A stretch of DNA of 63,760 nucleotides, the filler included, from Syncephalis fuscata S228 (Eukaryota > Fungi > Zoopagomycota): assembly GCA_025786725.1 (NCBI GenBank). It is 5 parts of 5 records of this genome, joined end to end, with 100 filler letters (N's around TTAATTAATTAA, not from the genome) between each part and the next. Parts side by side here need not be neighbours in the genome. Positions count along the whole stretch, not along the records: positions 1 to 26,601 come from JAHLTZ010000110.1; positions 26,702 to 36,057 come from JAHLTZ010000312.1; positions 36,158 to 52,020 come from JAHLTZ010000208.1; 2 more parts are not named here. The stretch is one strand, 5' to 3'. Both the position numbers and the translations under genes were made by a program. This document shows positions 1,819 through 40,038 of this stretch, piece after piece. Below the pieces are notes generated by a model. The model was not told the DNA's origin and ran no database searches. It saw only the letters and a program-made list of their open reading frames with translations. How positions within the stretch are numbered: the first letter of the stretch is position 1; every line of letters begins with the position of its first letter.

Positions 1819-3551
1819 TTATGGTTGTGGGTTATCTGCATTTATAAAGAAAGATATTACATGTCATATAATTAATGTATAATCTATCAATATACAGTAC
1901 TACTTACTGCCTATTATATTAAGTTATTGATACACACAGTATATAGCATTTGGTCAGTACATAGTCAATTAATATACAATGCTACTTACATTCTATTAAT
2001 ATTAAATTGTTGATGAATACAGTAAATAACATTTAGTTAGTGAGTAGCCAGTTAGTATACAATACAACTTACGCTCTATTGATATTAAGTTGTTGATGGA
2101 TACAGTAAATAGCATGTAATTAGTGAGTAGCCAGTTAGTATACAATACAACTTACTATCTATTAGTAGCAAGTTATTGATACACAAAATACACAATATAT
2201 AATTAATAAATAGTCAAGTAATATACAATACTACTTGCCGCCTATTATATTAAGTTGTTGATGCGCACATTATATAGCATGTGGTCAGTACATAGTCAAT
2301 TAATATAAAATTATACTTACAATCTATCAATAATGTTGTTGATTTATAGAGTACATAATATATAATTAGTAAACGGTACATAATATACAATACACTTACA
2401 GGCTATTAATATTAAATAATTAATACAATTAGTAAATAGTATAGTTAATGTATAGTCAGTTGATATACAATATCACTTACTCACTATTAATATTAAATAA
2501 TTAATACAATTAGTAAATAGTATAGTTAATGTATAGTCAATTAATATACAATATCACTTACCGCCTATTAATATTAAATAATTAATACCATTAGTAAACA
2601 AATAGTTAATGTATAATTAGCTAATATACAATATCACTTACATTCTATTAATATTAAATAATTAATACCATTAGTAAATAGCATAGTTAATATATAGTCA
2701 GTTGATATATACTACTACTTACTGCCTATTAATAAGGTTGTTGATGCATACAATACATAACACGTAATTAGTGAATAGTTAGCTAATATACAATAGCACT
2801 TACATCCTATTAATATCAAGTTATTGATACACACAGCATATAGTATATAATTAATCAATGCTCACTTAATATACAATACAACTTACTTTCTATTAGTGCC
2901 AAGTTATTGATACATATAATACACAATATATAATTAGTGCATAGTCAGTTAATATACAATACAACTTACTTTCTATTATAGTAAATTGTAATACACACAA
3001 TACATGGTATACAATTAATTTATAAGTCAGTAACATACAATGCTACTTACTGCCTATTAATATTAAATCATTAATACACACAACACATAATATACAATTA
3101 GCCAATGCTCAATTAATGTACAATATGACTTACAATCTATTATATTAAGTTGTTGATACACACAATGTATCACATAAAATTAGCACATAGTCGGTTAATA
3201 CACAATACATCTTACCATCTATGGTATTAAGTTATGTATACACGTAATACATGTTATTAATTAATTTATAAGCCAGTAATATATAATATCACTTACCGCC
3301 TATTAGCATTAAGTTAATAATACACATAGTATATAACATGCAATTAATGAGTAATTACAGTTAATAAGCAATACAACTTACAATCTAATAGCATCATTAG
3401 TTAGAAATATTATTGGTAAGCAAATGCTATGGCATATTTATTGTTATTGCAACATACCACGACGAACTAAAGCTGGATCAGCATCCACAATGGCTGTAGC
3501 GGCTATCAAAGCCACAAAGATGGTGCAAACGACGGCAATGGAAAGCTTCAT
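1819..3551 (-). CDS. Micro-exon gene 1 (MEG1): secreted 6-Cys prepropeptide, 55 aa, 21 exons
   Basis: Exon 1 (3551-3458, 94 nt) = MKLSIAVVCTIFVALIAATAIVDADPALVRR+G, then GTATGT donor. Nineteen 3-nt exons follow, each between TAG and GTAAG (one GCAAG), lowest coordinates 3382, 3297, 3216, 3134, 3051, 2970, 2887, 2804, 2723, 2642, 2562, 2481, 2400, 2321, 2239, 2156, 2073, 1990, 1908. Introns are 72-82 nt. Last exon 1835-1819 after CAG. Spliced mature part: DCDDCKKRCKCVTYCDKQCNNPQP*. Confidence 0.88.
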
Positions 3552-3687
3552 GGTGATATTGATTTGTTAAGACAAACAAATAAAAGAAATAGTAGAGTGT
3601 GGTTGGTGTAAAGTGGAGAGTAGTGTGTGTTTAGTAAGAAGTAGAGTGGGATGATGATATCGCAGTTATTTGTGTATATTTTGTGGG

Positions 3688-3770
3688 CTATTTAAACTTA
3701 TGATTATGCTGAGTACTAGTATACTGTAGTATACGATATATACCATTGATGTGTGATATGAACCAATAAA
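3688..3770 (-). promoter_or_regulatory. Putative core promoter shared by the micro-exon genes
   Basis: TATA-like TTTAAATAG on the minus strand about 140 nt upstream of the ATG, with plus-strand CCAAT further up. Same block at 17382, 35264 (TATAAATAG) and 40175 (TATAAATAG). Confidence 0.5.
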
Positions 3771-5665
3771 GCAATCCAAACAATGAATTGAGGTGCGCGT
3801 GTACCAATAGACTCATGCCGTAATAGGATGTATCTCAGCCTTGCTTTTAATCTGCTCGGTCTTGATTTTAACCTGCCCGGCCTTTACTTCAATCTGCTAG
3901 TCATTTACACAAATGATGTAAGGGTGTTCGTAATTCAGTACTATGGGATAAAAATTGGCATATTAGCCTGAATTTTTTGTTACACGATTTAACTATTTGG
4001 TAAAAACGATAATGAAGTCTTTGCTGCCATCTCTACTGATTTGATTCTCAATATCTGTTGCATACAGAATAGCACACAACAACACTGATGCAAAAACAAG
4101 TTTGATATGTTAAACTGGTATTTTATACAGGTTTTACTGCCATACATAGGTCAGCTGTAGTTTTAGATTATAAAGTGTGCTGATTGGTACATGAGTGCAT
4201 TTCATTCAACACTATGCCCATTGTTATGGGGCAATCATTGCTTTGAATTCACAAACGCATTACATCCAGGCATATCATGCCACATGTTGTGCAACTACCA
4301 TCATTCAAATGGCGGCTAATCTAAACCACATGAAATTAAATATACAATAAGTATTGTTTGTAGCATAATGCATCACAGCATTTTGAGCAATGGAACATTC
4401 CAACAAGTCATTTTCGTCATCAGTTTTCAGCTGTAAACTAGATTGCATTGGCTAAATTACACGCAATACAATATGCAGACACCAGAATAAACACAATAGA
4501 AAGTTCTGCTCAAATATTACCAATTTCAGTGCATAGTGTCGATGGATTGCATATCGATGAGTAATCATCCAAGGCCTAGGTACTACTTACATTTTCGAAA
4601 CCAATCCTAGCAAGTTAAGCAAGATAGAATATAAACGAACAAGTCAAAGCAGAAACCAATGGAAAAACAATTGGCAGCTCAAAGGATTAATGTTTTGACC
4701 TATAACAAATCATTATAACTATGCTAAACTGGACTGCGTTTATCAAAAGTTGGCTGTTGCTAATGTGACCAAAACAGCAGCAACGTTAAACCGAGATAAT
4801 GCACAAAAAACAAAGAAATGTAAATAAAATTGAATTAACAATTTTAGTAATTAAATCATTTATTATTGTCATTATAATTTATAATTATGGTTGTTTGTGA
4901 GTATAAATATTTACAATCACACTGTAACTTCTTATATACTTACATTTATACGACTACCAACTAAGTCAACTATTATAAGGCTTAGTTTAATTACTTATTA
5001 GAGTAAGCAGTTAATATTATACATTATTGCAATAATAGGAAGACAGATTAATTTTATTATTGATCATTAACGAAAGTTGTATAACTATGTATCAAAATAA
5101 ACATTGAATTAAGCGCGTAGTATTTACATGATCAAGTCATTTTTACTTTAACTCTCACATTTTTATTTACTCATTTCACTCCCTTTTTCTATTGCTATCT
5201 TATTATTCTATTCAGTAATATAGTATACAATAATACCGAATATAACAATATAAATAGCATGTGTATTTGAACATCAATAAAAAACACTATTCAATTCTTA
5301 GTCTTTATTTCCCTTATTTTACATCAACACCTGTTTAAGTAACCTCAACGGTATGCCGTATATTCTGGTTACAACTGTTGCCACAAGATCTTCCTGGTGA
5401 AGACGCTCAACTTATCATTATTGCATATGGTGGAGACCATTTGTTTTATCAATGGTTGGCAAATAATCTGCATTTACCAAGTTGATATCAAGAATGCTCA
5501 AGACAATGGTGAACATTAGGGATGCTAGTCGTCCTACCTTTTTGTCACCATAGACAAATATTTTACATCGCAAATATGCCCAAAATGCAACAGCAGAAGA
5601 TTGGGGAATAGAAGGGACCATTCAGACGCAAGAAACCACACGGTACATAGTAACAACAATAACAA

Positions 5666-5995
5666 CTGCAGAATGGCGTGGAATCGCAATCACATGGCTT
5701 TTATTAATATTTAATCAATTTTTCTACGCATGACCAACAACAATAATGATAGGCCTCGTGAATTTCAAAGTAGTCAAATAGCATGTTACAGTATTTATTT
5801 AAATGTTTAAAATAGAAGTTATTAATATAATGTTCTGTTACATTTAATTTTATTTTATGAAAATAATAATGTTATTATATTAATATTAATATTTATTGTG
5901 AATGATCATTTAAACACAAATTAATCCAATCAATTCGTTAACTATTTAAATCACTACAATTGATTGCGTAAAATGATTTGCTGCTTTAGGGGATT
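5666..5995 (+). repeat. Dispersed non-coding repeat
   Basis: 5666-5800 resembles parts of 30219-30480 and 52993-53245 (GCTTTTATTAATATT...ATCAAT...CCAACAACAA). 5852-5995 resembles 50972-51095 (TTTATTGTGAATGAT..TTTAAACACAAA...GATTGCGTAAAA). Confidence 0.75.
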
Positions 5996-6072
5996 AGAGT
6001 AGATATTAGCCATGTAGTTTTATTTAATTGTTAGAATCAAGAAATAAACCACATTTGTATAAAACCATTCAT

Positions 6073-7508
6073 TTAAAGATTAGCAGCACCAGAAATAAAG
6101 AACCACTTGTCAACTATGATATTATAATTATAATCATTAATATTTACTAATCTACTCTATCGAGTAGTGCTTACCAGATGAATCAATAGGATGTGGTACC
6201 AAATTCTCGCCCTAATTAATAATAGATTATATTAGACATATTATACTTGATCAATTCATTATAGATCAATACTTGCCTGTGGAATGCTCTTAGCCACTGG
6301 ATCATCGTGTGTAATCTTGGCTGGACTGCCTTCAACCGTAAGATTGGTGCTAAAGTAAAGGATTAGTATAGATTATAATTACTTTAATAACTTACATGTT
6401 CAAATCGTATTTATCAGTCTTGGCCGGTACTTTGCCACCAATCAAACGCTTCCAGGCTTCGTGGGTCTCAGCAACAATTTCTGTGGCATATTTCTATAAT
6501 GATGGCTATGGTTAATTAACGTAGTAGCAACCATTTATAGCAACTTACCTTATTCTTGGCTTCACCACTGAATGCAAATTGATTTTCAGGCTTGCCATCA
6601 GGGATCTTATAAATACGGAACCATTCGTTGGTGGCACGGATAAGACCGGGTAAATGGCGTTCAACATCCTCAATATCTAATAACGTTAATTCATACATAT
6701 TATATAAGACATAAATACACTTTATTTAGTATTACTACTTACCATTAAGCTTGTTGGCCAATGGATCATTGACATCAATAGCCAATAATTTCCAATCAGT
6801 TTCACCTAATGGGTTGGTATACATATTTATTATTATTATTATTATTATATTATATATAAAACTACCTTCATCGAGCAAAGCCATGACACCAAGAATCTTT
6901 ACTTGTTTAACTTGACCGACATAACCGACTTGCTCACCAATTTCACAAACATCAATAGGATCGTTGTCTCCGCGTGCCTTTGTCTCTTCATGTGTATGGG
7001 TTGGATCCTCCCAAGTCTAGTAATATCAATAGAATGGTTATATAACTATTAAATTTATTTATTAATCCATTTATTTACCTGAGGCAATGCGCCATAGTTC
7101 CAAATATAGCCATGGTGTGGGAAGCAGTTGCGCACATAGCGAAGTTTACCCTTTTTAACATCTTGTTTAATAGGTGTTAATGGTTCACCTGTAGCAATCT
7201 AAATATCAACATAATATAATAAAATATTATATAATGTTAATAGTAACATAATAATTAATTACCTCTAATTTGGCATTGGTCCATCGTGGAATTTCAACAA
7301 CCATATTGACAATGGTTTTACGGTCATTGGCGTACAAAGGAATATCATGGAATGGTGATATGACAACACCGTCCTTTTCTATTATATATATAAATATAGA
7401 TATTATTAATATTATTAATATAAAAAATTAACTATTAAACTAACCGAAATAGACGCGGTGGTCTAGAGTGTTGGGAGCACCAACAACACGGGTTTTGTAT
7501 TCAGACAT
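6073..7508 (-). CDS. IPP1: Inorganic pyrophosphatase, family I, multi-exon
   Basis: [83 protein letters not shown], ending [12 protein letters not shown]. Confidence 0.96.
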
Positions 7509-7971
7509 GGCTGTAGTAGTAAGAACGCGACGGTAAATAAGCGAGTAGGTAGTAGATAGAGAGGCAAGTGGTGTGGTTGGAACGAGACAATGACGCGTTC
7601 GAGTGATCAATGGAAAAGAAAGAGAAAGAAGAGGCGGCGTTCTCAGTCTCATGTTTGAAGATAAGCAGCCTCGAAGTGGCAGGTGCGGTATTTTGATAAC
7701 AGTTGCCATTCTCAACTATCTCTGTGTGTGTGTGTATCTCTAAGATGCAGGTAAAAAAATGTACAACCTTTCTTTTACGTTGATTTCGCTAATTGGTTTC
7801 ATAGTCTATCTTGATTGATTCAAGTCTATTTGAAATAAGATTCAGATGGATACGTGTCATATCAATAGAAACACAAGTAGTTTGATATTGAGCAACGACA
7901 CTATTGCTATTGCTACGGTTAGAAGACTATTATTATTACTGCTATTACTGCTATCTCATCAACTGGTCAGC

Positions 7972-10783
7972 ATGTCTCAACATATTAACACGGTTGCTTT
8001 AACCTCGAATGCGACAGCTGAGGTAAAGCTAGATGGTGTACACTGAAAGGACAGTGCTCTAATACTAGTGTATAGGATATTCGACTAGCTAAAGATGTAC
8101 GGAAACATGCAGTTGAAGTAGCCGATGAATTAAAGGGCCTTGAGCTGATTTATGCAGCAAAGTGTAAATATTAACTAACAACTAGTAGAATAGACATGCT
8201 AATTATCACGCTAGATAGCAAACAGATGCCGCGTGCATTAGCAATACAAGAAGAAATTGAGGTAGGCACAAACGAACATTAATCCATTAGAAACCAATAA
8301 TTAATAGTGAAGGATAGCAATGTCAACATCTAGTAGATAGTATGGAAGAGACACTATTGGGATTTCAAACATCGTTGGCTGAAGTAAGTCGCGGTATTAT
8401 GCATATTCAACAAAGTTCTGCCACCATGACACAACATTTACATAATCGCAAAGTAAGTGATCATCAATACACGTAATTATTTGTTGATTTATCATTAGAT
8501 TGGACAACAAGCATTGGATAGAAATTTAACTAAATTAGTGGTGCCGCCCTCATTGATTGTGTAAGTGGATAATGTTAGTATTAGTGTATTTAATAGCTCA
8601 ATATATTTGCTAGAACCATTCTACAACAGCCTATTGATGATCCATATATGGATGCATTAGCGATTCTTCATGCCAAATTACAATATGCACGACGATTAGA
8701 AATGGACAAAACACAGCTCCCGTCCGATTTACGTGATGCACTTGAACGGCTAAGATTAGCGGTAATTACTCGTTATGTATCTGTTCATCAAGTAGTAATT
8801 AATCTTAAATACATATAGGCAACAGCTCGTGTACGAAAGTTTTTATTAGAAAAGGTTGAATCCCTACGAGTACCCAATACTAATGTTCAAATTATTCAAC
8901 AAGCCGTACTATTACGGCATCAACCAGCATTCCGATTCCTTAGAAAATGGCATGTAGAGGCCGCTTCCGAGATACTACAGTCTTATATCAATGCCATGAT
9001 GCTATACTATTTAGATAACTTTGAACAATATAGTCGTGGGCTATGGCGGTTACTTGTATGTAATTCTGGCTTGTATAATAAACAAAGCGGCTATAATAAT
9101 AATAACTGTTCTATTTATTAGGCACCTGTAGTAGAAAAGAACGATTTAACTATCTGGGATGATACAAGTAAATCGTGTAAGTAAATTACGGTATTCAAGT
9201 TATATATTCACTGTATATACATAGTGTTTGCAACTTATAAAGCAGCCGCTTCACCCGAGACGTTTAAAGTCGCAGAACGGATAAAAATACTCGGCTCTAC
9301 CGATGGTGAAGTTATTTTAGCCCATATGGCCGAAGGATCTATGGTAAGTCGTCAGTCTATCGAATATAGATAAGCGACAGGAATGAGGCATTTTACTAAT
9401 AGTTGGATCATGAATAGACATTTCCATTAGAAAAGATTATACGCAGTATTCACGCGGCTCTTCGTGATAATGCCTGTGCAGAGTTTGTATTTATTTTACA
9501 GTTTTTTATTCATCGTTCCGAGTCAGAAGGGGCCGACATATTTACCAAAGTATTTCGGCCTACATTAAATGCACTATTGGTGGGTTATTTAAACAATTGC
9601 CATTATCGACGTATGACTTGTAATACTGATCTATCAATGATTACTAGGCCGATATACGACATGCAGTAGAAAATTCGTTTGATATACTGGGCTTAATTAT
9701 GTCGGTACGTGTACTTGAGCAGATTGGCATTGAAATGGAACGACGCCAAATGTCCATTCTCGACCATTACCTACAAGAGGCCATTATGACTATTTGGCCC
9801 AAGTATCAATTGTTGATTGATCGTATTGTTCGTAATATCCGCGAATTACCAGTTAAAAAACTTACGAATAATATTCAAGTTGGACCACACACGGTAGTAA
9901 TCAATACTATCTGTTATAACCATCTGCTCATCGCTATTTACATATAATTAGACCACAGTAAAATTTGCCGAATTAATTGCCGCCATTCTTGAACTATCTT
10001 TGGGTCCAAATGATGGTGTCGTGCAAAATAGGTGGGCAAATTATTGGTAACATTTATTTATCACTTAATTTTTAACGTATCTATGATCAGTCTTTTGAAA
10101 TTAAGATCTGAATTTAATACGCTATTTGATAAAATGGCCGCTTCATTTCCGGCCATGGTAGATCGACATGCATTTTTTATTAATAACCTTGCCTCCATTC
10201 TTTCCAAATTAGTAGGTATTTATGGGTGGTTATACTATTGAATACACGGCTCTACTTGGTTCGCTTTTTCTTACACTGACATATACTGGACAATTAGTCA
10301 CGATCTAGCGGAGAGGAACCAGTATTATTACATTATCAACAAGCATATGAAACTCATGTAACCGAACTCGTAGAACAGTTGCTCGATCAGCATTTTCCAG
10401 AGCTGGCCCATTTGGCACGAGCAGCAGAAGCCGCTGCACCCACCCTTCCCAATTGCGATCAAGGTAGGCTGATAGACATTATTGCCAGAATAGTTTATAT
10501 GCTGACACGATGCGTGTTTATAGATCAATTGGCGCATATTTCTCAAAATTTCAACGAACGATGGATGAATGAAATCGATGAGCTTAACCATAAGGTTCAA
10601 CAGCGTATCAGCAGTCATCAGGCTCAGGTTGAACTGATGCAGGCCATTCTCTCCCGTCTTATGGCCTACTATACGCATTTCTATCTTTTACTCGAACAAG
10701 TACTTGATGTCCATGCACTCGACTGGACACCGCTAGGTGTGCAGACATTGATGGTAGATATTAAACGATTTGCATTTCAATAG
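7972..10783 (+). CDS. VPS52: GARP complex subunit Vps52/Sac2-like, many exons
   Basis: Exon translations such as LLGFQTSLAEVSRGIMHIQQSSATMTQHLHNRK, LERLRLA/ATARVRKFLLEKVESLRVPNTNVQIIQQAVLL, LRDNACAEFVF and FFINNLASIL resemble Vps52. Start codon is tentative. Confidence 0.8.
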
Positions 10784-10811
10784 CGCCTTGCCGATCGGCC
10801 GATTTGATTTA

Positions 10812-11211
10812 CTAGAGAGAAGTCGTTGTAGCTGCTAATAACCAGCGGCGTCCTACACCTAGCCAGGCCTCCCAGTAGTTGGTCCACACTGTATACAATC
10901 ACAGACAGACGAATATATGAATAAATACATGCATAAATACATAAATACGCGTCAGTGCTTAATAACTTGCCCCAAAATGCAAACCGTCGTCCAAACCAGC
11001 GACCAATAAACGGAATAGCAATACCCGTTACTAGAAACTTCAATTCGCGTATATTCTCCTCCCACTCGGCTTCCCAGTCGGAATCATCGTCGTCATCACT
11101 GTACTTTGCTATACTATCCTCGTCTGTGTCTGACCATATAGAGTCAGATAGCAATGAATCATTAGCTATGGACGCATCGACGTCCAACCCAGTTGTGTCC
11201 GTGTCTGACAT
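10812..11211 (-). CDS. MIM2: Mitochondrial import protein Mim2-like
   Basis: Acidic N-terminus, then EAEWEENIRELKFLVTGIAIPFIGRWFGRRFAFW. A probable GC-AG intron leads to the last exon VWTNYWEAWLG...TTSL*. Confidence 0.72.
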
Positions 11212-11935
11212 GACGAAGCAAAAATAAAAAACTAAAAGGGAAGAAGAAAGAGAAAGACAAGTGGATGTTTGGCTAGGTGGAACTAAGCATAGTTGTATAT
11301 TATTAATAATTTATAATGATATGTTATTTGCTGCTGTTTGGCGTTCTTCAATGGTCGATGCCATGGCTGGTGCACGACGAAGTTGGGCCACGCTGTCGCA
11401 AATGAGCTTTTAAAACAAGCAAGCGATAAGTAACAGATGTGTACATTTGTATACACTGATAGTCCACTGTTTATGTATCGTTTACTTTGCTACACTATGC
11501 GCTAGTGTCTTTTATTTCCAATATATAGTAATTTTACTCCTTCGTCATATACTTTATCTTCTTATTCATGCTTAGCCCATTGCTAATTCCATTTTGTCTA
11601 TTTTACAATGAATTGTGCGCAGATGATACTATATACTATTACTAGCTACTGTCATATGAATAAACTTATTAGCATTTCTATGATAATTAAATTAATGGAC
11701 AGTTCGTTTAAATTGACGCTTATTGACTATTAAAAGCATTAATAAAATAATACTTGAACAATAATGATTTAGAATAAATTCGAATTTATTGCTTATGACA
11801 TTTAGTTTTGCAATTTAAGATACTATGGCTGGTAATATAACTAAGTATTATACTCATAAACAACGGGAAGTGAATTGGGTATACGATAGTTATGTTTATA
11901 TGCCGAAAATATTATCTGTAAACTCGGTTTTATTG

Positions 11936-14374: not shown

Positions 14375-17248
14375 TTATTCTAATATATAATTAAATACAA
14401 TGTTTTGCACAAAATTAGTGTATAAGCAATTATACATAATGCCACCTACTGCCTATTAGTATCAAGTTGTTTATACGCACAGTACATAGTATATGATTAG
14501 CGTATATTTAGTTGCTACGTTATGCCACTTACAGTCTATTAATATTAGATTGTTAATACGCACAATTCGTAGTATTTGATTAGCGTATATTCAATTAATA
14601 TATAGCATCACTTACTTCCTATTGGTATCAATTTGTTGTTAGATATAATATATAGTATGTATTATTAGTGAGTAATCAACTAATACAAAATAACACTTAC
14701 CGCCTGTTAATATTGAATAGTTAATATAAATGGTACATAAAACACAATTAGTAATTAGTTAATTAATGCAAAATGTAATTTACCGCCTATTAATATGATA
14801 TTGTTGATACGCGTAGCACACGGTGTGTAATTAGTGCATAATCAATTAATATAAACTATTACTTACATTCTATTAGTGTCAGGCCATTGGTATACATATG
14901 GTATATAAAGTGTAATGAGTGCATATCCTACTAGTATACAATGTCACTTACTTCCTATTAATATTAAAATATTAAATATGTATAGCTAATTAATATATGT
15001 TATCACTTACCAACTATTATAGCAAGTTGTTTGTAATATAATACATAGTATATAATTAATGTATAGTTAATTGATATACAATAACACTTACCACCTATTA
15101 CATTAAATTTTCAATACGCATATAATACATTATATAGTTGGTACATAATGAAACAGTATAAAAATCCTTACAAACTATTAATATTGAGTTGTCAGATATG
15201 CGCATTGCATAGCATGCAATTAGTGTATGAACTGTTGATATACAATGGCACTTACTGCCTATTGATATTAAATTATTTATGCCCACAGTATACAATATAC
15301 GATTAGTGCCCACTCAATTTATTTATAATAACACTTACCAACTATTAATATTGAGTTGTCAAATACGCGCATTATATAGCATGCAATTAGTGTATGTTTA
15401 GTTAATATACAGCACTGCTTACAAACTATTAATATTATGTTATTAAAGGCAATTGTATTTGATTAGCGCATAGTTAAAGCGTATAAAATAGCACTCACCG
15501 CCTATAAATATTAAATTTTTGGCAAAAGCATTGTATAAAATTTAATTAGTATAGAACTGATCAATATACAATGGCACCTACAATCTATTATATTAGATTT
15601 TGATACACCCATATAGTATATAATTAGTTTGTGCATAATCAATACATAGTTCCACTTACACCCTATGGATATTGAGTTGTTGGCAAAATTAGTAAACAAA
15701 GTATAGTTAGTACAAAGCTAGCTAGCTTGAAATGTCACTTACAGGCTATTATATTAAATTTAAATAAATAAAATACAGTTAGTACATAGCTAATTAGTAT
15801 GCAGCCTCACTTACGTCCTATTAATATTATTTTGTTGATAGATATAGCAGGCAACATGCAGTTAGTGTTTAGTTGATTATTATGAAATATTACTTACCAA
15901 CTATTAACATTATAATATCGATATTCACAGTACATAGCATTTAATTAGTGCATAGACAATTAGTATACAATTTCACTTACCGGCTATTAGTATCGATTTG
16001 TTGATGCACATAGTACATAGCATGCAATTAGTAATTAGTTAGTTAATATACAATTTCACTTACGGGCTAATAGTATTAAGTTATTGATACAGATGGCACA
16101 TAGTATACATTTAGTATGTAATCAATCAATGCACAATGTCAATTACCTCCTATTAATATTGATTTTTGGTACAAAAAGTACATTGCTTAACTCATGATTA
16201 GGTAGTGTAAAATTCCACTTACTAACTATTAATATTAAGTTATTAATATATAAGATGTGTAAGATTTGGTTAGTTTATAACTAATTGAGCTAAACTATTA
16301 CTCACGAGCTATTAATATTAAGTTAAGTACAGTGAATATATTTTAAGCAATTATAAACAAACTAATATGCAACTTCACTTACGACCTATTATTATTATTA
16401 TGTTTTATATATATATAGTAAACGACATGCAATTAGTGAGCTGTCAGTTAATATAAAATAATACTTACCGGCTATTAGTATTGATTTGTTGATACACATA
16501 GTACATAGCATGCAATTAGCGTATGATCAATTGATACACAATATCACTTACGAGCTATTAATGTTAATTTGCCATATAAAAAATTGTAAATTAAATTGCT
16601 AATTAGCATACAATTCCACTTACTTTCTATCCATGTTAATTTAAGAAATAACATTAATGAGCAACTAGATTGTTAATCAACATACAACACCACTTACTCA
16701 CTATTAATGTTAATTTGACAAATAAGACAATAATCAATTAAAATCTTAATTAACATAAGATATCACTTACACCCTATTTGCATCAATTTAGGAAATAACA
16801 CTAGCGATCAATTAAATTGTTGATCAACATATAATACCACTTACATTCTAGTAAAGTTAATCCAGTGTATTATTATTATAAACATAGTATTTTATCCACT
16901 AGTTTATAGCAAACTTACTTTTGTCCAATGATGTTGCTTGAACTATTTTACATTAACAAATAATACCTAATTAATCTACAAATAGCTATTTATAACCAAA
17001 CCTACCGGCTGTTTACATGTGTTTATCATGTTTATTACGTAGATGGCAGCCTGCTGTAAGTATCAAAATAATGGTTCATGGTAATGGCTTACCCTCTAAT
17101 ACTGCCATTAGCCAAACATAATCCTATTGCATATTTATTGTAATTTTGACATACTACGACGAATTATAGATGGTTTAGCATCCGCTATATTTATATTGGC
17201 TACAAAAGCCACAAAGATAGTAAAGACGACGACAATAAAAAACTTCAT
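14375..17248 (-). CDS. Micro-exon gene 2 (MEG2): secreted Pro/Gly-rich 4-Cys prepropeptide, 73 aa, 36 exons
   Basis: Exon 1 (17248-17155) = MKFFIVVVFTIFVAFVANINIADAKPSIIRR+A. Then 3-nt exons at 17093 and 17006, a 24-nt exon at 16942-16919, 31 more 3-nt exons from 16845 to 14450, and a last exon at 14379-14375. Introns are 56-84 nt, all GT..AG. Spliced: KAVQATSLDKKWLKTPGPLRAPVGPWYCVFGICVGKCGGNCK*. Confidence 0.88.
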
Positions 17249-26701: not shown

Positions 26702-26707
26702 GTATTT

Positions 26708-28880: not shown

Positions 28881-29192
28881 GGTGAAATAAGTGAAGCAGA
28901 ACACTGAATGAGAAAAACAGGGCACGATATTGTTAAGATGACACCATTGACGACGTAGACACTATTTAATGACACAGATGCGTTGCTGAGGTATTACTAA
29001 TCCAAAAACGATCTATCATAACGATTTGAATAGTTGACGAGTTGATTGGATTAATTTGTGTTGAAATGATAATTTACAATAAACATTAGTATAATGTAAC
29101 AACATTATCATTTTCATAAAATATAATCAAATGTAATAGGACATTGTATTAATAATAATTTAAATATTTAAATAAACAATGTAACATACTAT

Positions 29193-30116
29193 TTTAACAA
29201 CATCCAATCTATTGAACATGCTGATGGGTGGTGAGTGACATTAGTCATCAAATACTCATCATTGTAGATTTATTATCTAGCACGCATATAGCATCATAGT
29301 ATGTGTTATTACTATATATGCCCGTCATTTTGCTTGATTAACATTAAAACCATAGCTAATTTCATATTCATATTATTGTTCTATCAATATAACTCAGTAA
29401 ACAAACTAAGTGCAATAAGTCAATTTTTATTAATGAAAAAGCTGGAACCATACCGACAACGGTTATAGACAGCGTATGGCCAATATATAATAAAATAATA
29501 AATATTGTAATGAATATGCAATATTAAACGAGAATAGCAACGTTAAAGTTATTGAACATATATGCATGAGCAGATGACCAACATTAGTCGAACCTTATTA
29601 ATAACAGTGCTATAACAAAAAAAACAAGTGCAATAGATAGTACGTATTTATTATACAATAAAACAATATACAATATAAAAAATACGGTATGAAATGACGA
29701 TTAACTATGTTGAAGTCATTGAGTATATATGCATGCTTAAAGAGTGGAATTAGTCGACATTTGTTGATAATAGTGCTAGAACAAAAATAAAAATAGCTTT
29801 GGATAGAGGAAGGCAAAGTGAGTATAGAATGCTATATAGAATGATAAATATACGGTAAGAAAGTATAAAATGGTGCTAAAGCTATAGCGTATATAACGCA
29901 ATGAGGAGAATGAGTAAAGTATATTGGAGCATATAAACAATAGAACGTGTCTAATATAGCATAGCATGATATATAATAGTATGTGCTAGAATGGGAATGA
30001 TATAGGTGAATATAGAATATATGCATACTGGATAATAAATCTACAATGACCAGTGTTTTGATGACTAATGTCATTCACCACTCATCATCATATTCAATAG
30101 ATTGAATGGTGTTAAA
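29193..30116. mobile_element. Non-autonomous inverted-repeat (MITE/foldback-like) element, copy 1
   Basis: About 100-bp imperfect TIRs: CAATCTATTGAACATGCTGATGGGTGGTGAGTGACATTAGTCATCAAA at the left and TTTGATGACTAATGTCATTCACCACTCATCATCATATTCAATAGATTG at the right. No coding capacity. Related copy at 62815-63760. Confidence 0.8.
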
Positions 30117-32345
30117 TTTAGTCAGTTTAAGCATAAATCATAATAAATGGCTAATAAATTTAAAGTTAAAAATGAAATAGTATATAGTATGTATATATTA
30201 ATGCAACAACAACAACAACTGTGGAACGACGTGAAATCACAATTGTATGGCTTCTATTAATATTCGATCAATCTTTCTATACATGACCAACAGCAACAAT
30301 GATTGGCCTCAAATGTCTCAACAAAATCAATAGTATGTCCCATTATTTGTTTAAATCAATTTATTAACAATATTTCAATAGGAAGTAATATAACTATATT
30401 GCATATGATAACGACATGACTCTGATTGGAGTGAATTTGCTTTGAGGACTCAAAAACTGGGAGTCAGAATGAAATGCGGAATTTTGAAGCATTATTTACC
30501 ATAGTAAATTACGATTTTAAATAAGCATAAATAAAACTATCAAGTCATCAATTCCTTTTATTATAATTAGTACAAAATAAACATATTACAAATGATGTTG
30601 CTACATTCTCAAATGTAAAACAAAAGATGTACAAATAAAATTATTAAGTAGATATTTAATTATTTAACATACACTAACAATTGTAATGGCTTAATAGATG
30701 CTATTATTTTTTATTAAAAGCTTGGTTTGCCTTTAATTTGCTAAAAAACGGCAATGTTACAACAACAGTAATAAAATGATGTAGCATTGACCAAGTAATC
30801 AAAAAAGAAAAATAAATAGTAGTTTAATTAAATATTTTGATATCAATTTAATAATAATACTATTAGTATCAAATGACTTTAACTTATCACAATAACAAGT
30901 TAGCAGATTTATAACAAAAGTTGTAACTGTATAGATTTTATAATAAGCCAAAATAGATTGAATTATAAAAAGGCATTTTATTATTATTTGATTAATAGTA
31001 TTGTGTATTTATAATATTATTGAATAAATACAAACTACTAATGAAGCAACTATCAAAATAAATAAAGTGTAATGCAAACAAAAACTGTTTAATTAATAAA
31101 TATTTTAGATTTAAATCTAACCAACAAATAAGATTAGATTGGTTTAGAGTATTTTGAATATCAGATATAGCAATTAAATAATTCCAAATTACATAAAAGT
31201 ATTATTGCTTTGATCAACTTAAATTAATTAGTTGGTGTATCAAGCAAGAGTGAAGATGTGCAAAATAAAACCGTCAACATGGCATTTGTCATTGATAAAC
31301 TAGAACAATCTACTCGTAACGTTCATTTTAAATGTCGCAGTAGTCGCTCCAATGTTCCAATTTAAAAGAGTTGTGGAACATGGCGAAAGAAGCTTAAGAG
31401 GGTGCTGTGACGGATCATTTAAACCACTTGATTTGTATCAAATCTTGTGATATTTTTATTAAATAAATAAAGATCACTTTTTCCACAATATTGAGCATGC
31501 TATTGGTTGTTTAGTGTGATTTGGCAGTTAAATAGCTATAATAATCACGTATTTAAACTAAATATCCGCTTTATTGAAGATGAAACCGGCTGTTGAGTGT
31601 CATTGGTTATTAAGCTATTTATTTATCATTATTGTTGTACTGTACATATCTGTCTTGTATACACATACTATATGTCTGTCTATATCATTAATATTGTAAA
31701 TTGTAGAAATTATATTAATAGAAGCTAAAAGTTTATTGCTAGCTGTATTCTTTTAGCAAATCTTGATTCATTTCGTTCATTGCTATTGGCTAATTGCATA
31801 CAGTATAGTTTTGTTATTACTATTCACGTATTCGTTTTGTCTATTTATTTTGTTTTATAATATTGTATGCTTTATTGTCGTGTTTTATTAAAAAGCGTAT
31901 TTATTCTAATTTCAGCATAATATTGTTTGGCTATATGATAATGATAGCTTTGCTACTATCCATACCAATCTATGCCTATAGCTTAGGCGATATAATTATA
32001 CACATTTTGTTATTAATTTAACTATTTGATTGATAATTGTCATTATTGAATGCAAATAAAACATGGTTATAGATATAGCAATTTGATTGTATATAGCTAA
32101 GATGAAACCATAGATTTATTACTATAAGCTTGCACAGTTGAATAGGGGCAACTAGATGCAAACATGTTGGTAACATAATGATTCAATTGATTAAAGACTG
32201 GATAAACCGGAGCATTGGCCAAAACTTGATATATAAATAGACTGGGCGGCGTAATTGTCAAATGGTCTTGCTTTTCGCCGAATATATACCTAAATTGTAT
32301 TGGAATAGTGGTTTGATTGCACCACCAATGCTAATGTCCTTATGC

Positions 32346-35128
32346 TTATGGGTTATCTGCATTTATAAATAAAGATATTACATGTTATATAATTAGTGTA
32401 TAAGCCATCAATATAAAATTTTACTTACGGTCTATTGGTATTATGTTATTGATACACATGGTGCATAACATGTAATTAGTGAGTAATTAATCAATATGAA
32501 ATGCTACTTACGGCCTATTAGTATTAAGTTATTGATACCCATAGTGCATAACATGCAATTAGTAAATAAATAAATAATATACAATGCTAATTACATCCTA
32601 TTAATATTGATTTGTTGATAAATACAATACATGGTATATAATTAGTATGTGTTCTATTGGTATGCAATATAACCTACTGGCTATTGATGTTAAGTCATTG
32701 ATAAGCACAATATATGCTATATAATTAGCGAATAGTTAGTTGATATATGATATAACTTACTCCCTATTAATATTAAATTATTGATGAGCACAATACATAA
32801 TATACAGTTAATGTATAGTTAGTTAATATACAATATCACTTACTGCCTATTAATATTAAACAATTGGTACAATCAATAAATAGCATAGTTAATGTATAGT
32901 TAGTTAATATACAATACAACTTACAGACTATCAATATTAAATAATTGGTATTATCAGTAAATAGCATAGTTAATGTATAGTCAGTTAATATACAACATCA
33001 CTTACGGTCTATTAGTATTAAATAATTGGTACAATCAGTAAATAACATAGTTAATGTATAATCAGTTAATATACAATATCACTTACAGTCTATTAATATT
33101 AAATTATTGATGAGCACAATACATGGTATATAATTAATGTATAGTTAGTTAATATACAATATCACGGGGACGTTGCTAGCCCAGTTAGTAAGGCAGCGTC
33201 TCCCGAGCTGAAGGCTCCGGGTTCAAACCTCAGTTTGAATCAATCCTTAAGTGGAAAATCCCCCAGTTTTTTCTAGTTAACAAATTGCAAACCAGAACCC
33301 AATAAGTAAGTCCGAAAACAAGACCTTGGCCAGAATAGCCGAGGAAAACCCAATTGGGACCAACTTCAAGAGAATAGTGCTGTGTAGCACCATTTAAAGG
33401 AAGATGGCCCCTGTGTGAAATCTATATGGGCCAGATTGCGAAACAACATGGCAGTCCACCCGTTAATTTGGGAAAGTCCAAATATAGTGGAAAGCAGCGC
33501 AAATTCTTTAATTATGCGCAGCAGGGGCTCACAAGCTCTTCAAAATAAAATAAAATAATATACAATATCACTTACAGTCTATTAATATTAAATAATTAGT
33601 ATTATCAGTAAATAGCATAGTTAATGTAGTTAGTTAATATACAATATCGCTTACCCACTATTAATATTAAATAATTAATATTATCAGTAAATAGCATGGT
33701 TAATATATAGTCAGTTAATACACAGTATCACTTACTGTCTATTAATATTAAATAATTGGTACAATCAGTAAATAGCAGTTAATATATAGTTAGTTAATAT
33801 ACAATACAACTTACTGTCTATTAATATCAAATAATTGGTATCATCAGTAAATAGCATAGTTAATATATAGTTAGTTAATACACAATATCACTTACTGTCT
33901 ATTAATATTAAATAATTGGTATTATTAGTAAATAGCATAGTTAATGTATAGTCAGCTAATATACAATATCACTTACTGTCTATTAATATCAAATAATTGG
34001 TATCATCAGTAAATAGCATAGTTAATGTATAGTTAGTTAATATACAATACAACTTACAGACTATCAATATTAAATAATTGGCATTATCAGTAAATAGCAT
34101 AGTTAATGTATAGTTAGTTAATATACAATATCACTTACAGTCTATTAATATTAAATAATTGATACAAGCAGTAAATAGCAGTTAATATATAGTTAGTTAA
34201 TATACAATATCACTTACATTCTATTAATATTAAATAATTGATACAATCAGTAAATAGTATAGTTAATGTATAGTTAGTTAATATACGATATCACTTACTG
34301 TCTATTATATCAAGTTGTTGATACGCACAATACATGGTATACAATTAATTTATAAGTCAGCAATATACAATATTACTTACTATCTATTAGTATTAGGTTG
34401 TTGATATATATTATGCATAACACGTGGTTAGTACATAGTCCGCCAATATACAATGCTACTTACAGCCTATTATTGTTAAGTTATTGATACACACAACGCA
34501 TAATATATAATTAGTCAGTGTGCAATCAGTGTACAATATAACTTACATTGGTCTAATATCAAGCCATTGATACATACAACACATAATATATAATTAGTTA
34601 ATACTCAACTAATATACAATACAACTTACCCACTATGCATCAAATTGTTGATGCACATAATACATGATATATGATTAATTTATAAGTTAGCATATACAAT
34701 ATCACTTACAGCCTATTGTTATTAAGTGTTGATACACATTAGTCCATAGCATGCAATTAGTGATAATCAACCAAATATACAATATAACTTACAGCCATCT
34801 AATATTAAGTTGTCAATGGATACAGTACATGACGTATAATTAGTGTATGCTTTATTGGTATATAATAGAACTTACAAACTATTGGTATTAAGTTGTTGAT
34901 GAACACAGCGAATGACATGCAATTATGAGTCATTAGTTAATATACGATACAACTTACTATCTAATAGTATCATTAGTTAGCAATACTATTAATAAGCAGA
35001 TTACTATGGCATATTTATTGTTATTGCAACATACCACGACGAACTAAGGCTGGTTTAGCATCCACGATGGCTGTACTGGCCACAAGAGCCACGACAATGG
35101 TGCAAACGGCGGCAATGGAAAGCTTCAT
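32346..35128 (-). CDS. Micro-exon gene 3 (MEG3): secreted CxxxC-loop-CxxxC prepropeptide, 63 aa, 29 exons
   Basis: Exon 1 (35128-35035) = MKLSIAAVCTIVVALVASTAIVDAKPALVRR+G. Twenty-five 3-nt exons and two 6-nt exons (34793-34798, 34547-34552) lie between 34960 and 32429. Last exon 32356-32346. Spliced: DIYGCLDQCYNKYFYNNNMDYYLCRTRCHHNP*. Confidence 0.87.
33166..33555 (+). mobile_element. tRNA-derived SINE, family A, copy 1, inside an MEG3 intron
   Basis: A box TAGCCCAGTTAG (33177), B box GGTTCAAACC (33220), (AAAAT)n tail, and a perfect 16-bp TSD TAATATACAATATCAC (33150-33165 and 33556-33571). Confidence 0.92.
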
Positions 35129-36057
35129 GATGATATTGAATTGTTAAGACAAACAAAAAAAGAGATAGTAGAGTTTAGTTGGTATAAAGTGAAGAGCAGT
35201 GCGTGTATAGCAAGAAGTAGAGTGTGATAATGATATCGTAGTTGGTTGTGTATATTTTGTGGGCTATTTATACTTATGATTATGCTGAGATAATAGTATA
35301 CTGTAGTATACGAGATATACCATTGATGTGTAATATGAACCAATAAAACAATCCAAATAATGGTTTGAGGTGCACATGCACCAATAGATTCATGGCGTGA
35401 TATTATGCTTTCAAACTTAATTTCAACCTGCTCGGCATTTACACAAATGACACGGCAATTCCAATGAGCATTACATGTGCGATAGAGACATGTACATCAC
35501 TTTGCTTTTTTATTACACGGTTAACTATTTGGTAAAAGCAAGGTATTGTTTAACTTTGTAAAAGCAATAGTGATATTTTTGCCGCCATTTCTACCGATTC
35601 AGTCCTCAATATCTGCATGCATACTAAACAGCACACAACCTGCCCGGTCTTTACTTCAATCTGTTAGTCATTTGCATGAGTACTGTAACGGTGTTCATAA
35701 CCCAGTACATATGGTAAAAATAGACACATTAACCTGTTTTTTTATTACACGGTCTAACTATTTGGTAAAAGCAAGTATATTGTTTGGTTTTGTAAAAAAG
35801 ATAATGATGTCTGCTGCCATTTCTACCGATTCAGTTCTCAATGTCTGTATGCATACAGAATAGCACACAAAACTGCTGCAAAAACAAGTTTATCAAACTG
35901 GTATTTATACAGGTTTTTACTGCTATACATAGGTCAGTTGTAATTTTAAATTATAAAGTATATTGATTGGTACATGCGCGTATTTCATTCCACTATGCCC
36001 ATTGTTATGGGGTAGCAATTATTCTGAATTCACAAATGCATCACATCAAGGTATATC

Positions 36058-36157
36058 NNNNNNNNNNNNNNNNNNNNNNNNNNNNNNNNNNNNNNNNNNN
36101 NTTAATTAATTAANNNNNNNNNNNNNNNNNNNNNNNNNNNNNNNNNNNNNNNNNNNN
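36058..36157. other. Artificial contig-join linker
   Basis: N44-TTAATTAATTAA-N44. Confidence 0.97.
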
Positions 36158-36469
36158 GTGCCGACCAGCCAGATCCATCTGGCAAACGAGCAATGACAAT
36201 GCCAGAACCTGCACGTCCAGAAAATAGAAAGCCTGCTTTAACGACTGTAAAGATTGCTAATCCCTGGGCGCGCGCTAAAATGTCTGGTGGGATAACTGAA
36301 TCAGGTCCGTTATCGCCTTGGCCCGTTTCTAAAAGAAAGTGGCAATAAAGCAAACGTTATAGACGTTAAAATAAACTAAATAGCTATACTTACGAACAAA
36401 GCTGTTGAGTATCTTTGTTGCTTTGCGGCATTCGCCAGCAAGATTAGTAGGAAGTGGAGAGTTAACCAT
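36158..36469 (-). CDS. Ysc84/Lsb3 (SYLF domain) protein, 5' part only
   Basis: MVNSPLPTNLAGECRKATKILNSFV / DSVIPPDILARAQGLAIFTVVKAGFLFSGRAGSGIVIARLPDGSGWSA, cut by the gap. Confidence 0.9.
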
Positions 36470-37431
36470 GTTGATAAAACTTATGAATAATATTCAAAAA
36501 ATAATGCTTTGAAGAAGTCAAGAAAAACGGAGGAACAAGTGCAACAAGTACAGTTGCTATTGTTGCTGCAGTAGAACTTATTGTACTCAAAGCGCCAAGA
36601 TTCATCCAAGGAGGTACACCATACAAACCTAATCAGGCTATTTTTAGATCATTTTTACAATTATGACGATATCGCAAGTTGGCTCAATTAAACTAATCTC
36701 AATTATCCAATAAGCAAAGGCCTATCCAGCGTAGTTATAGCAATATCTTGGCTTTTGGTTTATACACAACATTTCGTGTGTTTTTATATAATCCAACCAT
36801 TAAAAATTAAAATAAAAGTTTGATTTCTTAACAATCAAAAAACAATTAAAATAAACAATAAACAATGATTTGTTTCATGATATTTACATAAAAAAATAGC
36901 CAATTTCGATCGTTATGTCTAACGACATAAATATATTAAATCGCAACATTTAATAAATATTATTCTGTTAAATACTTCAATGTCTGTTTCATAGGAGTGC
37001 GTACAGCCAAAGTAAATAAAAATAGTATTAACATTTCATTTTAATTGCAATATACATCTTCTATATCATTTGTAAATGAGTAACAATATAATGACACAAC
37101 TTGTGTTAATCAAATCTGTTGATTATTGAATGCAAATAGAACCTGATTATAGATATAGCAATTTGATTGTATATAGTTAAGATGGAACCATAAGTTTATT
37201 ACTATAAGCTTGCACAGTTGAATAAGGACAACTGATTGCAAGCTTGTTGATAAAATAATGATTCCATTGATTAGAGACTGGATAAACCGGAGCATTGGCT
37301 AAAACTTGATATATAGGTGGGCTGGACGGCTTAGTTGTCAAATGGTCTTGCTTTTCACCGAATATATACCTAAAGTGTATTGGAATAGTGGTTCAATTGC
37401 ACTATCAATGCTGATGTCTCGAAACCATCGA

Positions 37432-40038
37432 TTATGCTGTATTTACAAATAAAAATATTATGTGTCATATAATTAATATATGAGCCATCAATATATAATG
37501 CTACTTACCGTCTGTTAATATTAAATTGTTGATGCGCACAATACATAGATATAATCAGTGAGTAATTAGTTAATACAGAATATTACTTACTGTCTATTAG
37601 TATTAAGTTGTTGATGAATACAGTGTATAACATATAATTAGTGTATAGTCAGCTAACATATAATACAACTTACTTTCTATTATATTAAGTTTTTGATATA
37701 CACAACACATGGTATATAATTAGTGCATATTCAGTTAATACATAATGTTTCATACCGCCTATTAGTATTAGGTTATTGCCACACATAGTGCACAACATGC
37801 AATTAGTGAGTAATCAGCTAATATATAATACCATTTACAATACTCTAATGTTGATTGTTAATAAATACAGTACATGATATAAAATTAGTATATGCTCTAT
37901 TGATATACACTATTACTTGCTATCTATTAATATTAAACAACTAATACCATCAATAAATAGTATAGTTAATGTATAGTCAGTTAATATGCACTGCCACTTA
38001 CCACCTATTAACATTAAATAATTAATGTCATCAGTAAATAGTATAGTTAATATGCACTACCACTTACCACCTATTAACATTAAATAATTAATGCCATCAG
38101 TAAATAGTATAGTTAATGTATAATTAGCTAATATACACTACCACTTACTATCTATTAATATTAATTTTGATGCATACAATGCATAGCAGATAATTGGTCG
38201 GATAGTCAGCTAATATATAATACAAGGGGGGACGTTGCTAGTCCAGTAGGTAAGGCAGCGTCTCCCAAGCTGAAGGCTTCGGGTTTAAACCTCAGTTTGA
38301 AGCAATCCTTAAGTGGAAAATCCCCCCTCCAGTTTTCTCTAGTTAACAAATTGCAAACCAGAACCCAATAAGTAGGCCCAAAAACAAAACCTTGGCTAGA
38401 GTAGTCGAGGAAAAAAACAATTGGGATCAAATTCAAGGGAATAGTGCTGCGTAGCACCATTTAAAAGAAGATGACCCCGCGTGAAATCTATATGGACCAG
38501 ATTTGCGCAAAAACGTGGCAGTCCACCCGTTAAAAGTTTGGAAAAGCCCAAATATAGTGGGAAGCAGCGCAAATTATTTAATTATGTGCAGCGTGGCTCA
38601 CAAGCTCTTCAAAAATAGAAATAAAAATAATATACAATACAACTTACGTCCTGTATTATTTAGTTATTAATGAACACAATACATATTATATAATTAGTGA
38701 ATAGTCAGTTAATATGCAACACAACTTACTGCCTATTAATAAGGTTGTTGATGCATATAATGCATAACATGTAATTAGTGCTAGTCAGTTAATATATAAT
38801 GCAACCTACACCCTATTAATATTAATTAGTCAATGCATATAATACACAGTATATAATTAGTAAGTAATCAGTTAATATACAATACCACTTACCGCCTATT
38901 AAGATTAAATAATTGATACAATTAGTAAATAGCATATTTAATGTATAGCCAAGTGATATACAATACAACTTACTCACTATTAATATCAAACAATTGGTAC
39001 AACCAGTAAATAGCACAGTTAATGTATAGCCAGTTAATATACAATATTACTTACTGCCTATTAATATTAAGCAATCGGTACAATAATTAATTATTATTAT
39101 TAACGTATAGTCAATTAATATACCATGCTACTTACATTCTATTAATGTTTGTTAATACACACAGTACATGGATATAATTAGAGAGTAATTAATAAATATA
39201 TAGCACAACTTACTAGCTATTAATATTAAATTGTTGATACACGCACAGTACATAATATATAATTAGTGAATAGTCAGTGAATATGCAGTGTTACTTACTA
39301 ACTATTCCAGCAGTTATTGATGCACAATGCATGACACAATTAATTTATAAGCCAGCACATACAATGCTACTTACCGCCTATTAATATCAAGTTATTGATA
39401 CACACAGCACATAATATACAATTAGTCAATACTCAGTCAATATATAATATCACTTACATGCTATTAGTATTGATTTGTTGATATACACGGCGCATGATAT
39501 ATAATTAGCGCATAATTAATTAATACGCAATACACCTTACCCTCTATGGCATTAAGTCGTGATATACACAATACATGGTATATAATTAATTTATAATCAA
39601 CTAATATACAATATCGCTTACCGCCTATTAGTATTGAGTTGTTGATACACATGGTGCATAGCATGTAATTAGTGAGTAACCAATAATATACAATACAACT
39701 TACAGTTGCCTAATATTGATTTGTTGATGGATACAATACATGATACATAATTAGTATATGTTTTATTGGTGTGATATGTAATGCAACCTACCAGCTATTG
39801 ATATTTATTTGTTGATGCACACGTTACATGATATATAATTAGTGGGTAATTAATTAACATACAATAACTTACGATCTATTATAATTATTAATTAAAAATA
39901 TTGTTAATAAACAAATGCTATTATGTTTATTGTTATTGTAACATACCACGACGAACTGACTGGATTAGCATCCACCATGGTTGTAGCGGCTATCAAAGCC
40001 ACAACAATGATGCAAACAACGGCAATGGAAAGTTTCAT
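37432..40038 (-). pseudogene. Micro-exon gene 4 (MEG4), 27 exons, 2-nt deletion in exon 1 (pseudogene or assembly error)
   Basis: Exon 1 (40038-39947) is 92 nt rather than 94, giving TG+A stop at the first junction. Twenty-three 3-nt and two 6-nt exons (39704-39709, 37839-37844) read in the paralogue frame give DPGNCEACVTKCMSGCRHSGDKYCENNA*. Confidence 0.75.
38226..38627 (+). mobile_element. tRNA-derived SINE, family A, copy 2, inside an MEG4 intron
   Basis: Colinear with 33166-33555, with an A-rich tail and a 15-bp TSD TAATATA(T/C)AATACAA (38211-38225 and 38628-38642). Confidence 0.92.

Follow-up and report, generated by a model that had tools for sequence, protein, structure and literature searches.

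A 63,760-nt stretch of the genome of the fungus Syncephalis fuscata S228 (assembly GCA_025786725.1; five parts of five records joined by filler, hereafter the window) contains four minus-strand arrays, walked unit by unit and read here as four genes (G1 to G4), in which nearly all residues of a small mature peptide are encoded by exons that are mostly three nucleotides long. We are highly confident of this micro-exon architecture. The reading as a whole, namely that these are spliced one-codon-exon genes for secreted cysteine (Cys) peptides most likely acting on host fungi or rivals, appears to us very probable, and the role against hosts or rivals, which is argued from indirect patterns, is slightly favoured over other roles.

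In the mechanism that we propose, paralogous genes are transcribed and the mature region would be assembled by removal of 20-35 short introns lying between mostly 3-nt exons. Each phase-1 exon would complete one codon (positions 2-3) and open the following one (position 1), and because such exons split codons, the junction codons depend on exon order. Every exon is presumably included, in order, and splicing would proceed by intron definition, with a candidate branch point mostly 10 nt before the exon. If the familiar secretory pathway applies, the precursor would be cut by signal peptidase after Val-Asp-Ala and then by Kex2 after Arg-Arg. Duplication or loss of intron-plus-codon units would change the peptide by one residue without a frameshift, and the predicted mature peptides would most likely act on host fungi or competing microbes, as effectors or antimicrobials.

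Architecture of the four arrays

All four genes lie on the minus strand and span 1.7-2.9 kb. G1 runs from its ATG at 3551 to a stop at 1819 and has 19 micro-exons, all of 3 nt, in an array at 1908..3384 with introns of 72-82 nt. Its exon 1 (3458..3551) encodes a predicted signal peptide and a short pro-part, ends in Arg-Arg plus 1 nt and is followed by a GTATGT donor; a TATA-like box lies at 3696, the coding part of the last exon at 1819..1835 and an AATAAA at 1599. G2 (17248-14375; 34 micro-exons) has a divergent exon 1 (17155..17248; 70-74% identity to the other exons 1) that also ends in Arg-Arg plus 1 nt, an array at 14450..17095 with 33 exons of 3 nt and one of 24 nt, and a last exon whose coding part is 2 nt and the stop (14375..14379). 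G3 (35128-32346; 27 micro-exons) comprises exon 1 at 35035..35128, with its donor at 35035, where the family's RNA contigs part from the genomic sequence, and a TATA-like box at 35272; its array at 32429..34960 holds 25 exons of 3 nt and two of 6 nt, and the coding part of its last exon is at 32346..32356, with an AATAAA at 32120. G4 (40038-37432; 25 micro-exons) has an exon 1 at 39947..40038 in which the frame is lost ahead of Arg-Arg, a TATA-like box at 40183, an array at 37509..39875 with 23 exons of 3 nt and two of 6 nt that is free of stops in phase 1, and a last exon with its coding part at 37432..37436 and an AATAAA at 37200.

A recount reproduced exactly the tally given in an earlier note on this DNA, with 100 exons of 3 nt, four of 6 nt and one of 24 nt in four minus-strand arrays, and all 105 are multiples of three. 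The same note had described splice dinucleotides that stay intact while neighbouring bases drift, and this is what we find: the acceptor AG is present in 105 of 105 units and the donor is GT in 103 and GC in two, whereas other intron positions are mostly about 35-90% conserved. No period lacks its splice sites. Introns measure 56-84 nt, the exceptions being two of 486 and 496 nt that were each enlarged by a SINE-like insertion, and within a gene they share a median identity of only 62-72%. A YTRAY branch candidate occurs in 83 of the 105 introns, with its A at -10 in 57. An unbiased scan of both strands of the window for YAG-N(1-30)-donor returned 94 matches on the minus strand and four on the plus strand for N3, and 1-10 matches for each other length of N. 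Comparison between genes found no strict positional orthology of introns, the first and last introns excepted.

Coding signal in phase 1

Read in phase 1, the four exon strings contain no stop and 19 Cys in 112 codons; phase 0 yields three stops and no Cys in 116 codons, and phase 2 eight stops and one Cys in 112 codons. Three exons are literally TGA and would be stops in phase 0. Across 100,000 shuffles of exon order, strings remained stop-free in 4.9% of cases for G1, 4.3% for G2, 34% for G3 and 33% for G4 (product about 2e-4). Shuffled controls giving equally open, Cys-patterned products had been named as a finding that would speak against the idea; shuffles that were stop-free with at least the observed number of Cys made up 0.014% (G1), 0.7% (G2), 1.1% (G3) and 0.2% (G4), Cys having been picked as the criterion after inspection of the products.

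The earlier claim that phase-1 joining is free of stops holds for the array junctions (0 of 105, with G4 treated as phase 1) and fails for G4 at the first junction from exon 1. Similarly, an exon 1 that ends in Arg-Arg plus 1 nt was found in G1-G3, where it is 94 nt long, and not in G4, where it is 92 nt long and out of frame.

Predicted products and their paralogues

The predicted precursors are 55-73 amino acids long, and the predicted spliced coding sequences of G1, G2 and G3 measure 168, 222 and 192 nt. Judged by eye, the exon 1 product has a hydrophobic N-terminus that ends in Val/Ala-Asp-Ala, and a dibasic Arg-Arg follows the pro-part in G1-G3 and most paralogues, P0129 being without it. 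The G1 product has six Cys (Cx2Cx3Cx1Cx3Cx3C) within 24 residues, the G3 product four (Cx3C-x14-Cx3C) and the G4 array product, in phase 1, five (Cx2Cx3Cx3Cx7C). In G2, four Cys (Cx4Cx3Cx3C) lie near the C-terminus, the pattern being confined to the last 14 residues.

Exon 1 is common to 18 annotated NCBI proteins (P0116-P0133), of which 16 were checked for species; all 16 are S. fuscata 'hypothetical proteins' encoded on 13 scaffolds, and these annotations show the family to be present on at least 13 other scaffolds. Ordered Cys spacing like that of the window products, CxxCxxxC...CxxxC(xxxC), is seen in P0116, P0123 and P0129. Alignment to P0129 scored 45 for G1 and 46 for G3, against a null mean of about 24 and scores of 15-20 in the other phases, and the score was matched by two of 3,000 exon-order shuffles for G1 and none of 3,000 for G3 (P=0.011 for G4). 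By the same kind of shuffle, G2 was not significantly similar to the paralogues (P=0.21). The ordered Cys spacing noted earlier is borne out for G1 and G3, which share that of the paralogues, and in G2 for the C-terminal 14 residues only.

Two of the paralogue models, P0119 and P0122, translate the intron consensus of the arrays (scores 91 and 72), and because they read into array intron they show that arrays exist elsewhere and that these models are mis-annotated, the arrays concerned being on other scaffolds. P0120, P0130, P0131 and P0132 are longer proteins with the same exon 1 and unrelated tails, either Cys-free or with an SVWC domain, and two of the four contain a second dibasic site; since such tails also follow exon 1, this exon appears to be a shared, reusable secretion cassette. 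A Pfam scan of 10 paralogues gave SVWC in P0132 as its sole pass.

For the mature part of P0129, the single paralogue on which fold prediction was done, a single-sequence model has two helices at residues 4-18 and 24-38 (pLDDT 89.5, pTM 0.58). A search of the ESM Atlas gave no usable match, and Foldseek with the P0129 model returned nothing at E<=0.001. Nigellin-1.1, vicilin-buried peptide 8 and a chain of Jug r 2 headed the matches (E 5.9-7.6), and vicilin-buried peptides were among the nearest solved folds, with TM scores of 0.79 and 0.75 but E values of 7-8. The mature product, predicted to be 24-42 residues long, is likely a disulfide-braced helical hairpin.

Syncephalis parasitises Mucorales by means of haustoria. 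A role against hosts or rivals is suggested because the leader is conserved, the tail variable and the pattern restricted to the species. The alternative that survives best accepts the architecture and has the peptides serve the fungus itself, as a coat, a spore or wall protein, in metal binding or in self-signalling. The very high summed RNA cover would suit a structural protein, G1 packs its six Cys into a short peptide, and host-directed activity is so far predicted only. Nevertheless, a conserved signal and pro exon joined to divergent mature parts, together with species-restricted expansion, is what has been reported for families at the parasite-host interface, and we regard a self-serving role as the less likely of the two, if one to be taken seriously.

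RNA evidence

None of the four sequencing runs considered (X1-X4) is recorded as RNA. Contigs of run X4 skip GT..AG introns in neighbouring ordinary genes, and because they cross these introns we take X4 to be spliced RNA. Over G1, summed X4 depth was 78,352 in the exon 1 bin, 38,255 in the last-exon bin and 1.8-72 in the array bins; over G3 it was 159,782 in exon 1, 110,222 in the last exon and 0-228 in the array outside the SINE-like insertion. Ordinary genes had summed depths of about 400-2,500. X4 gave no cover over G2, which was not used as evidence either way. Three further runs, X1-X3, cover repeated parts and little single-copy DNA and look like shallow DNA; they hint at tens of copies, a figure not relied on since depth is not copy number.

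Contigs were placed at fine scale over G3 only. At least five joints, among the 15 listed there, run from the predicted donor (35032-35036) to the last exon (32320-32360), in six contigs with depths of 167-4,108. Loose ends at 35034 and 35035 (two and three contigs; agreement 0.55 and 0.69) continue into neither intron nor last exon and are Cys-rich in phase 1, as read by eye from a mixed consensus; that at 35035 has one in-frame stop triplet, in the mixed part. In eight contigs of depth 2-28 an insert lies between an acceptor and a donor, with lengths of 6, 6, 6, 9, 9, 9, 15 and 24 nt, all eight being multiples of three. Among the 17 between-letter rows examined, a script recognised five as spanning an exon (6, 6, 9, 15 and 24 nt); for two further inserts, of 9 nt each, the acceptor was located by eye (the script had returned 8 and 'not spanning'), and one 6-nt insert derives from a 3-letter insertion. 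One 9-nt block that is flanked by intron in one contig lies in frame within the 24-nt block of another. The window genes contain no 9- or 15-nt exon, and inserts of 9-24 nt fit splicing intermediates.

The contigs demonstrate splicing at the ends of the family's genes and imply it for the middle. An RNA search proposed earlier is thereby answered in part: family contigs do link the exon 1 donor to the last exon and carry inserts in multiples of three, and none of the strings that could be read was a window gene's own. Together with the phase statistics and the annotated paralogues, the donor-to-last-exon contigs support the earlier proposal that a hypervariable family of spliced genes for secreted Cys peptides lies disguised in the repeats.

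Several points weigh against our reading. The RNA basis is one run of one study, and contig depth pools paralogues and is a poor gauge of expression. The long joints fix only the two ends of the spliced region, and the RNA strings that could be read come from paralogues, none from the exons of G1-G4 themselves. The 9-24-nt inserts could equally be longer, fused genomic exons of those paralogues. Position 1758 has a non-G1 base in all X4 contigs, and the joints mostly end in a G4-like last exon. On the protein side, nulls made by shuffling residues are weaker than those from exon order (0.015 for G1, 0.002 for G3, 0.09 for G4 and 0.66 for G2), and P0116, P0123 and P0129 were compared at the level of protein, not of exon structure. 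Finally, in G4 the frame is shifted ahead of Arg-Arg and a stop follows at the first junction.

It is conceivable, then, that G1-G4 are silent or decaying and that the RNA comes from family members at other loci, which might have fewer but longer exons. The frameshift in G4, the insertions in G3 and G4, the G1 allele missing at 1758 and the lack of any window-specific exon string among those read from contigs would all agree with this. The missing allele may, however, reflect a strain difference or contig simplification, as X4 differs from the window by single-nucleotide polymorphisms in ordinary genes too. Splice sites have moreover stayed intact in every unit of introns that have otherwise diverged widely, G1-G3 are stop-free and G1 and G3 keep the Cys spacing of the paralogues. 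If the genes are silent now, coding selection lasted until recently, and we consider general silence improbable.

For G4 alone the balance differs: its sequence marks it as a likely pseudogene, with an assembly error as the alternative. Rescue by another donor was considered by eye and appears unlikely, the strong candidate leading to phase 0 and a stop and the weak one to phase 1 without Arg-Arg.

Probable ordered inclusion of the micro-exons

A second way of accepting real micro-exon genes is to see the array as a device for combinatorial alternative splicing, in which skipping generates many isoforms. All exons are multiples of three, the precedents in Tuber and schistosomes use alternative splicing, and the X4 contigs look partly spliced, with introns retained on both sides of joined blocks. 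A skip would nonetheless rewrite the neighbouring codon and shift the Cys spacing because the exons are in phase 1, and most skips would destroy the fixed spacing shared with paralogues. Stops arise at 6 of 101 junctions when one exon is skipped, 6 of 97 for two and 7 of 93 for three, that is 19 of 291, the same rate as across all non-adjacent exon pairs (154 of 2,766). Since skipped junctions acquire stops at this background rate and adjacent junctions never do, selection seems to have acted on the full ordered string and not on skipped forms. Constitutive inclusion is therefore the reading favoured by the exon sequences, and an array serving mainly for skipping strikes us as quite unlikely.

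That the arrays are an AT-rich minisatellite with chance splice-like words inside one long intron is largely refuted and hardly credible: the units are indeed tandem repeats with 66-88% match, and generic-pattern matches in metagenomes are often simple repeats, but the triplets have 47% GC against 23% in their flanks and comprise 38 different sequences, the coding signal is strong and phase-specific, there is homology to annotated paralogues, and the RNA loose ends at the donor differ from last-exon sequence.

Evolution of the arrays

A TATA-like box lying some 145 nt upstream and an AATAAA some 236 nt into the last exon are common to G1, G3 and G4, and the 1.3 kb upstream of G1 (3552..4838, minus strand) are homologous to the region upstream of G4 (78%) and partly to that upstream of G3. 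Because of these shared boxes and signals and of upstream homology reaching up to 1.3 kb, the three genes are best seen as whole-gene duplicates. The region upstream of G3 (35131-36046) contains an internal duplication and adjoins the N gap at about 36058-36157.

The array of G3 holds a block of near-identical units that were recently homogenised. Peptide diversity more likely stems from gene duplication and from gain, loss and mutation of units than from skipping. In 17 closest unit pairs chosen on their flanks, exons differed at 0.49 and introns at 0.14 per site. Pairs chosen by one flank gave 0.53 and 0.33, values that become equal after scaling to the all-pair baselines of 0.71 and 0.43. 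The case for exons changing faster than introns is therefore suggestive only, and the sequences make no case for positive selection once this bias is controlled.

Comparison with known micro-exon systems

Judged by sequence, the Syncephalis genes work like schistosome micro-exon genes (MEGs) or the nank genes of Tuber and are members of neither family. The nank genes are the fungal precedent, an expanded family with tens of codon-sized exons (Iotti et al. 2012 as cited in PMC4986451, PMC13449251), and the 19-34 micro-exons per Syncephalis gene resemble them in this respect. However, the products of nank genes are large intracellular NLRs, said to diversify by alternative splicing (PMC4986451, PMC13449251), whereas the Syncephalis micro-exons, which are in phase 1 and show signs of full inclusion in order, make up the whole mature part of a small peptide that is Cys-rich and predicted to be secreted. 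The 10 paralogues scanned gave no match to the NACHT or ankyrin domains of Pfam by which nank genes are defined.

Schistosome MEGs combine small symmetrical exons, a signal peptide and alternative splicing and are described as confined to flatworms (PMC4350168); their exons are 3-81 bp long (PMC10526429) and their introns up to 5 kb (PMC4350168; PMC10526429). The Syncephalis family has in common with them the small symmetrical exons, species-specific expansion, a conserved leader with a variable mature part and transposon insertions, and its hydrophobic N-terminus may likewise be a signal peptide. It differs in its exon size, 3 nt in 100 of 105 cases, in its tandem introns of about 80 nt, its dibasic site and its fixed Cys spacing; no homology links the two, and all 16 relatives checked were from S. 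fuscata, not from a flatworm. The pea aphid KQY/KHI genes also attach a common signal-peptide cassette to divergent mature regions made from miniature exons (PMC7495047), much as Syncephalis exon 1 also heads Cys-free and SVWC-domain proteins, but with exons of 6-416 bp in genes of 12-87 kb (PMC7495047), against 3 nt and 1.7-2.9 kb here. In Coprinopsis, 3-nt exons are reported to number only 27, spread over 26 genes, and by this measure runs of 19-33 such exons are extreme.

Alpha-hairpinins and vicilin-buried peptides are plant peptides cut from polyproteins. Their motif CX3C-Xn-CX3C is exact in G3 and is contained, with two more Cys, in G1 and P0129; the two-helix hairpin predicted for P0129 may also resemble theirs, vicilin-buried peptide 8 and the Jug r 2 chain being among its best Foldseek rows. 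In contrast to alpha-hairpinins, there are six hairpin Cys in each of G1, P0116 and P0129, and the Foldseek matches are not significant. We regard the resemblance as at most a likeness of fold, not family membership.

A literature search that covered few subscription papers and no supplements turned up nothing on peptide genes of this micro-exon type in Syncephalis. Four of the 64 parts of a metagenome collection contained 113 loci with two consecutive 3-nt exons and three donors, from which we estimate about 2,600 stretches with short runs of 3-nt exons, simple repeats included. Runs of at least 10 exons occurred in 32 of the 113 loci, 22 of them remaining after removal of 10 that were microsatellite-like or had fewer than five different triplets. 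Phase 0 is free of stops in 20 of these 22 arrays and phase 1 in only three, and most are Cys-poor. The architecture thus seems to recur in other eukaryotes, and among the loci examined its phase-1, secreted, Cys-braced form was seen only in S. fuscata.

Some of these loci deserve mention in their own right. L031 (plus strand) has a frame at 2-1522 with NACHT-type, winged-helix and ankyrin parts, followed by about 35 exons of 3 nt at 1334-4471, the layout of Tuber nank in another fungus. At L081 (1398-3235, plus strand) a signal-peptide-like exon precedes about 18 exons of 3 nt with divergent introns and repeated TGT exons, possibly an independent one-codon-exon secreted Cys peptide. In L052, L050, L034, L089, L018, L051 and L030, exons of 3 nt follow one another in runs of 18-35, separated by short introns of canonical type; most of these runs are open in phase 0, and in some the introns are just 54-62% alike, as in old arrays.

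Our reading exposes a large and mostly unannotated or mis-annotated family of secreted peptides in a mycoparasite, whose members are candidates for effectors directed at hosts and might serve as new scaffolds for antifungal or antibacterial agents. These genes would also provide a natural and abundant substrate for studying how the spliceosome handles 20-30 consecutive 3-nt exons, and fungal annotation may be systematically blind to one-codon-exon genes beyond Tuber. More tentatively, and at a little less than even odds, we envisage a 'one codon per exon' foundry: dozens of hidden, very highly expressed genes that evolve protein by a duplicable intron-plus-codon unit of about 83 bp, so that single residues are gained, lost or exchanged in frame, and that yield disulfide-braced hairpin effectors against host fungi through 20-35 ordered splices of high fidelity, with genes of a similar hidden kind being common across fungi.

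The SINE-like insertion and other features of the window

The two enlarged introns contain copies of one SINE-like element, an insertion of about 390-400 bp in two arrays of which the earlier note made no mention. Copy 1 (33165..33556, plus strand) lies in a G3 intron and has an A-rich tail, a 16-bp target duplication and, by eye, a tRNA-like head; copy 2 (38228..38626, plus strand) lies in a G4 intron, is 88% identical to copy 1 and also has a target duplication. The two copies were inserted into different intron units, at an equal distance of about 18 nt past the donor. The element family seems heavily transcribed, because summed X4 depth over the G3 copy reaches 207,317. Rfam and ARAGORN found nothing in the insertion, and its origin from a tRNA is a judgement by eye.

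Contigs of X1-X3 and of X4 also cover another multi-copy stretch, at 5100-6000, of which there are partial copies at 29023-29194, 30205-30356, 50975-51095 and 52894-53131; it may represent either a small family of genes or a non-autonomous element. At 53361-54299 (plus strand) lies an intronless GH16-like gene (protein 53403-54296), whose relatives are found in three zoopagalean fungi, S. fuscata (100%), S. plumigaleata (72%) and Thamnocephalis (60%), and then in mostly metagenomic or bacterial sequences; an old horizontal transfer is possible.

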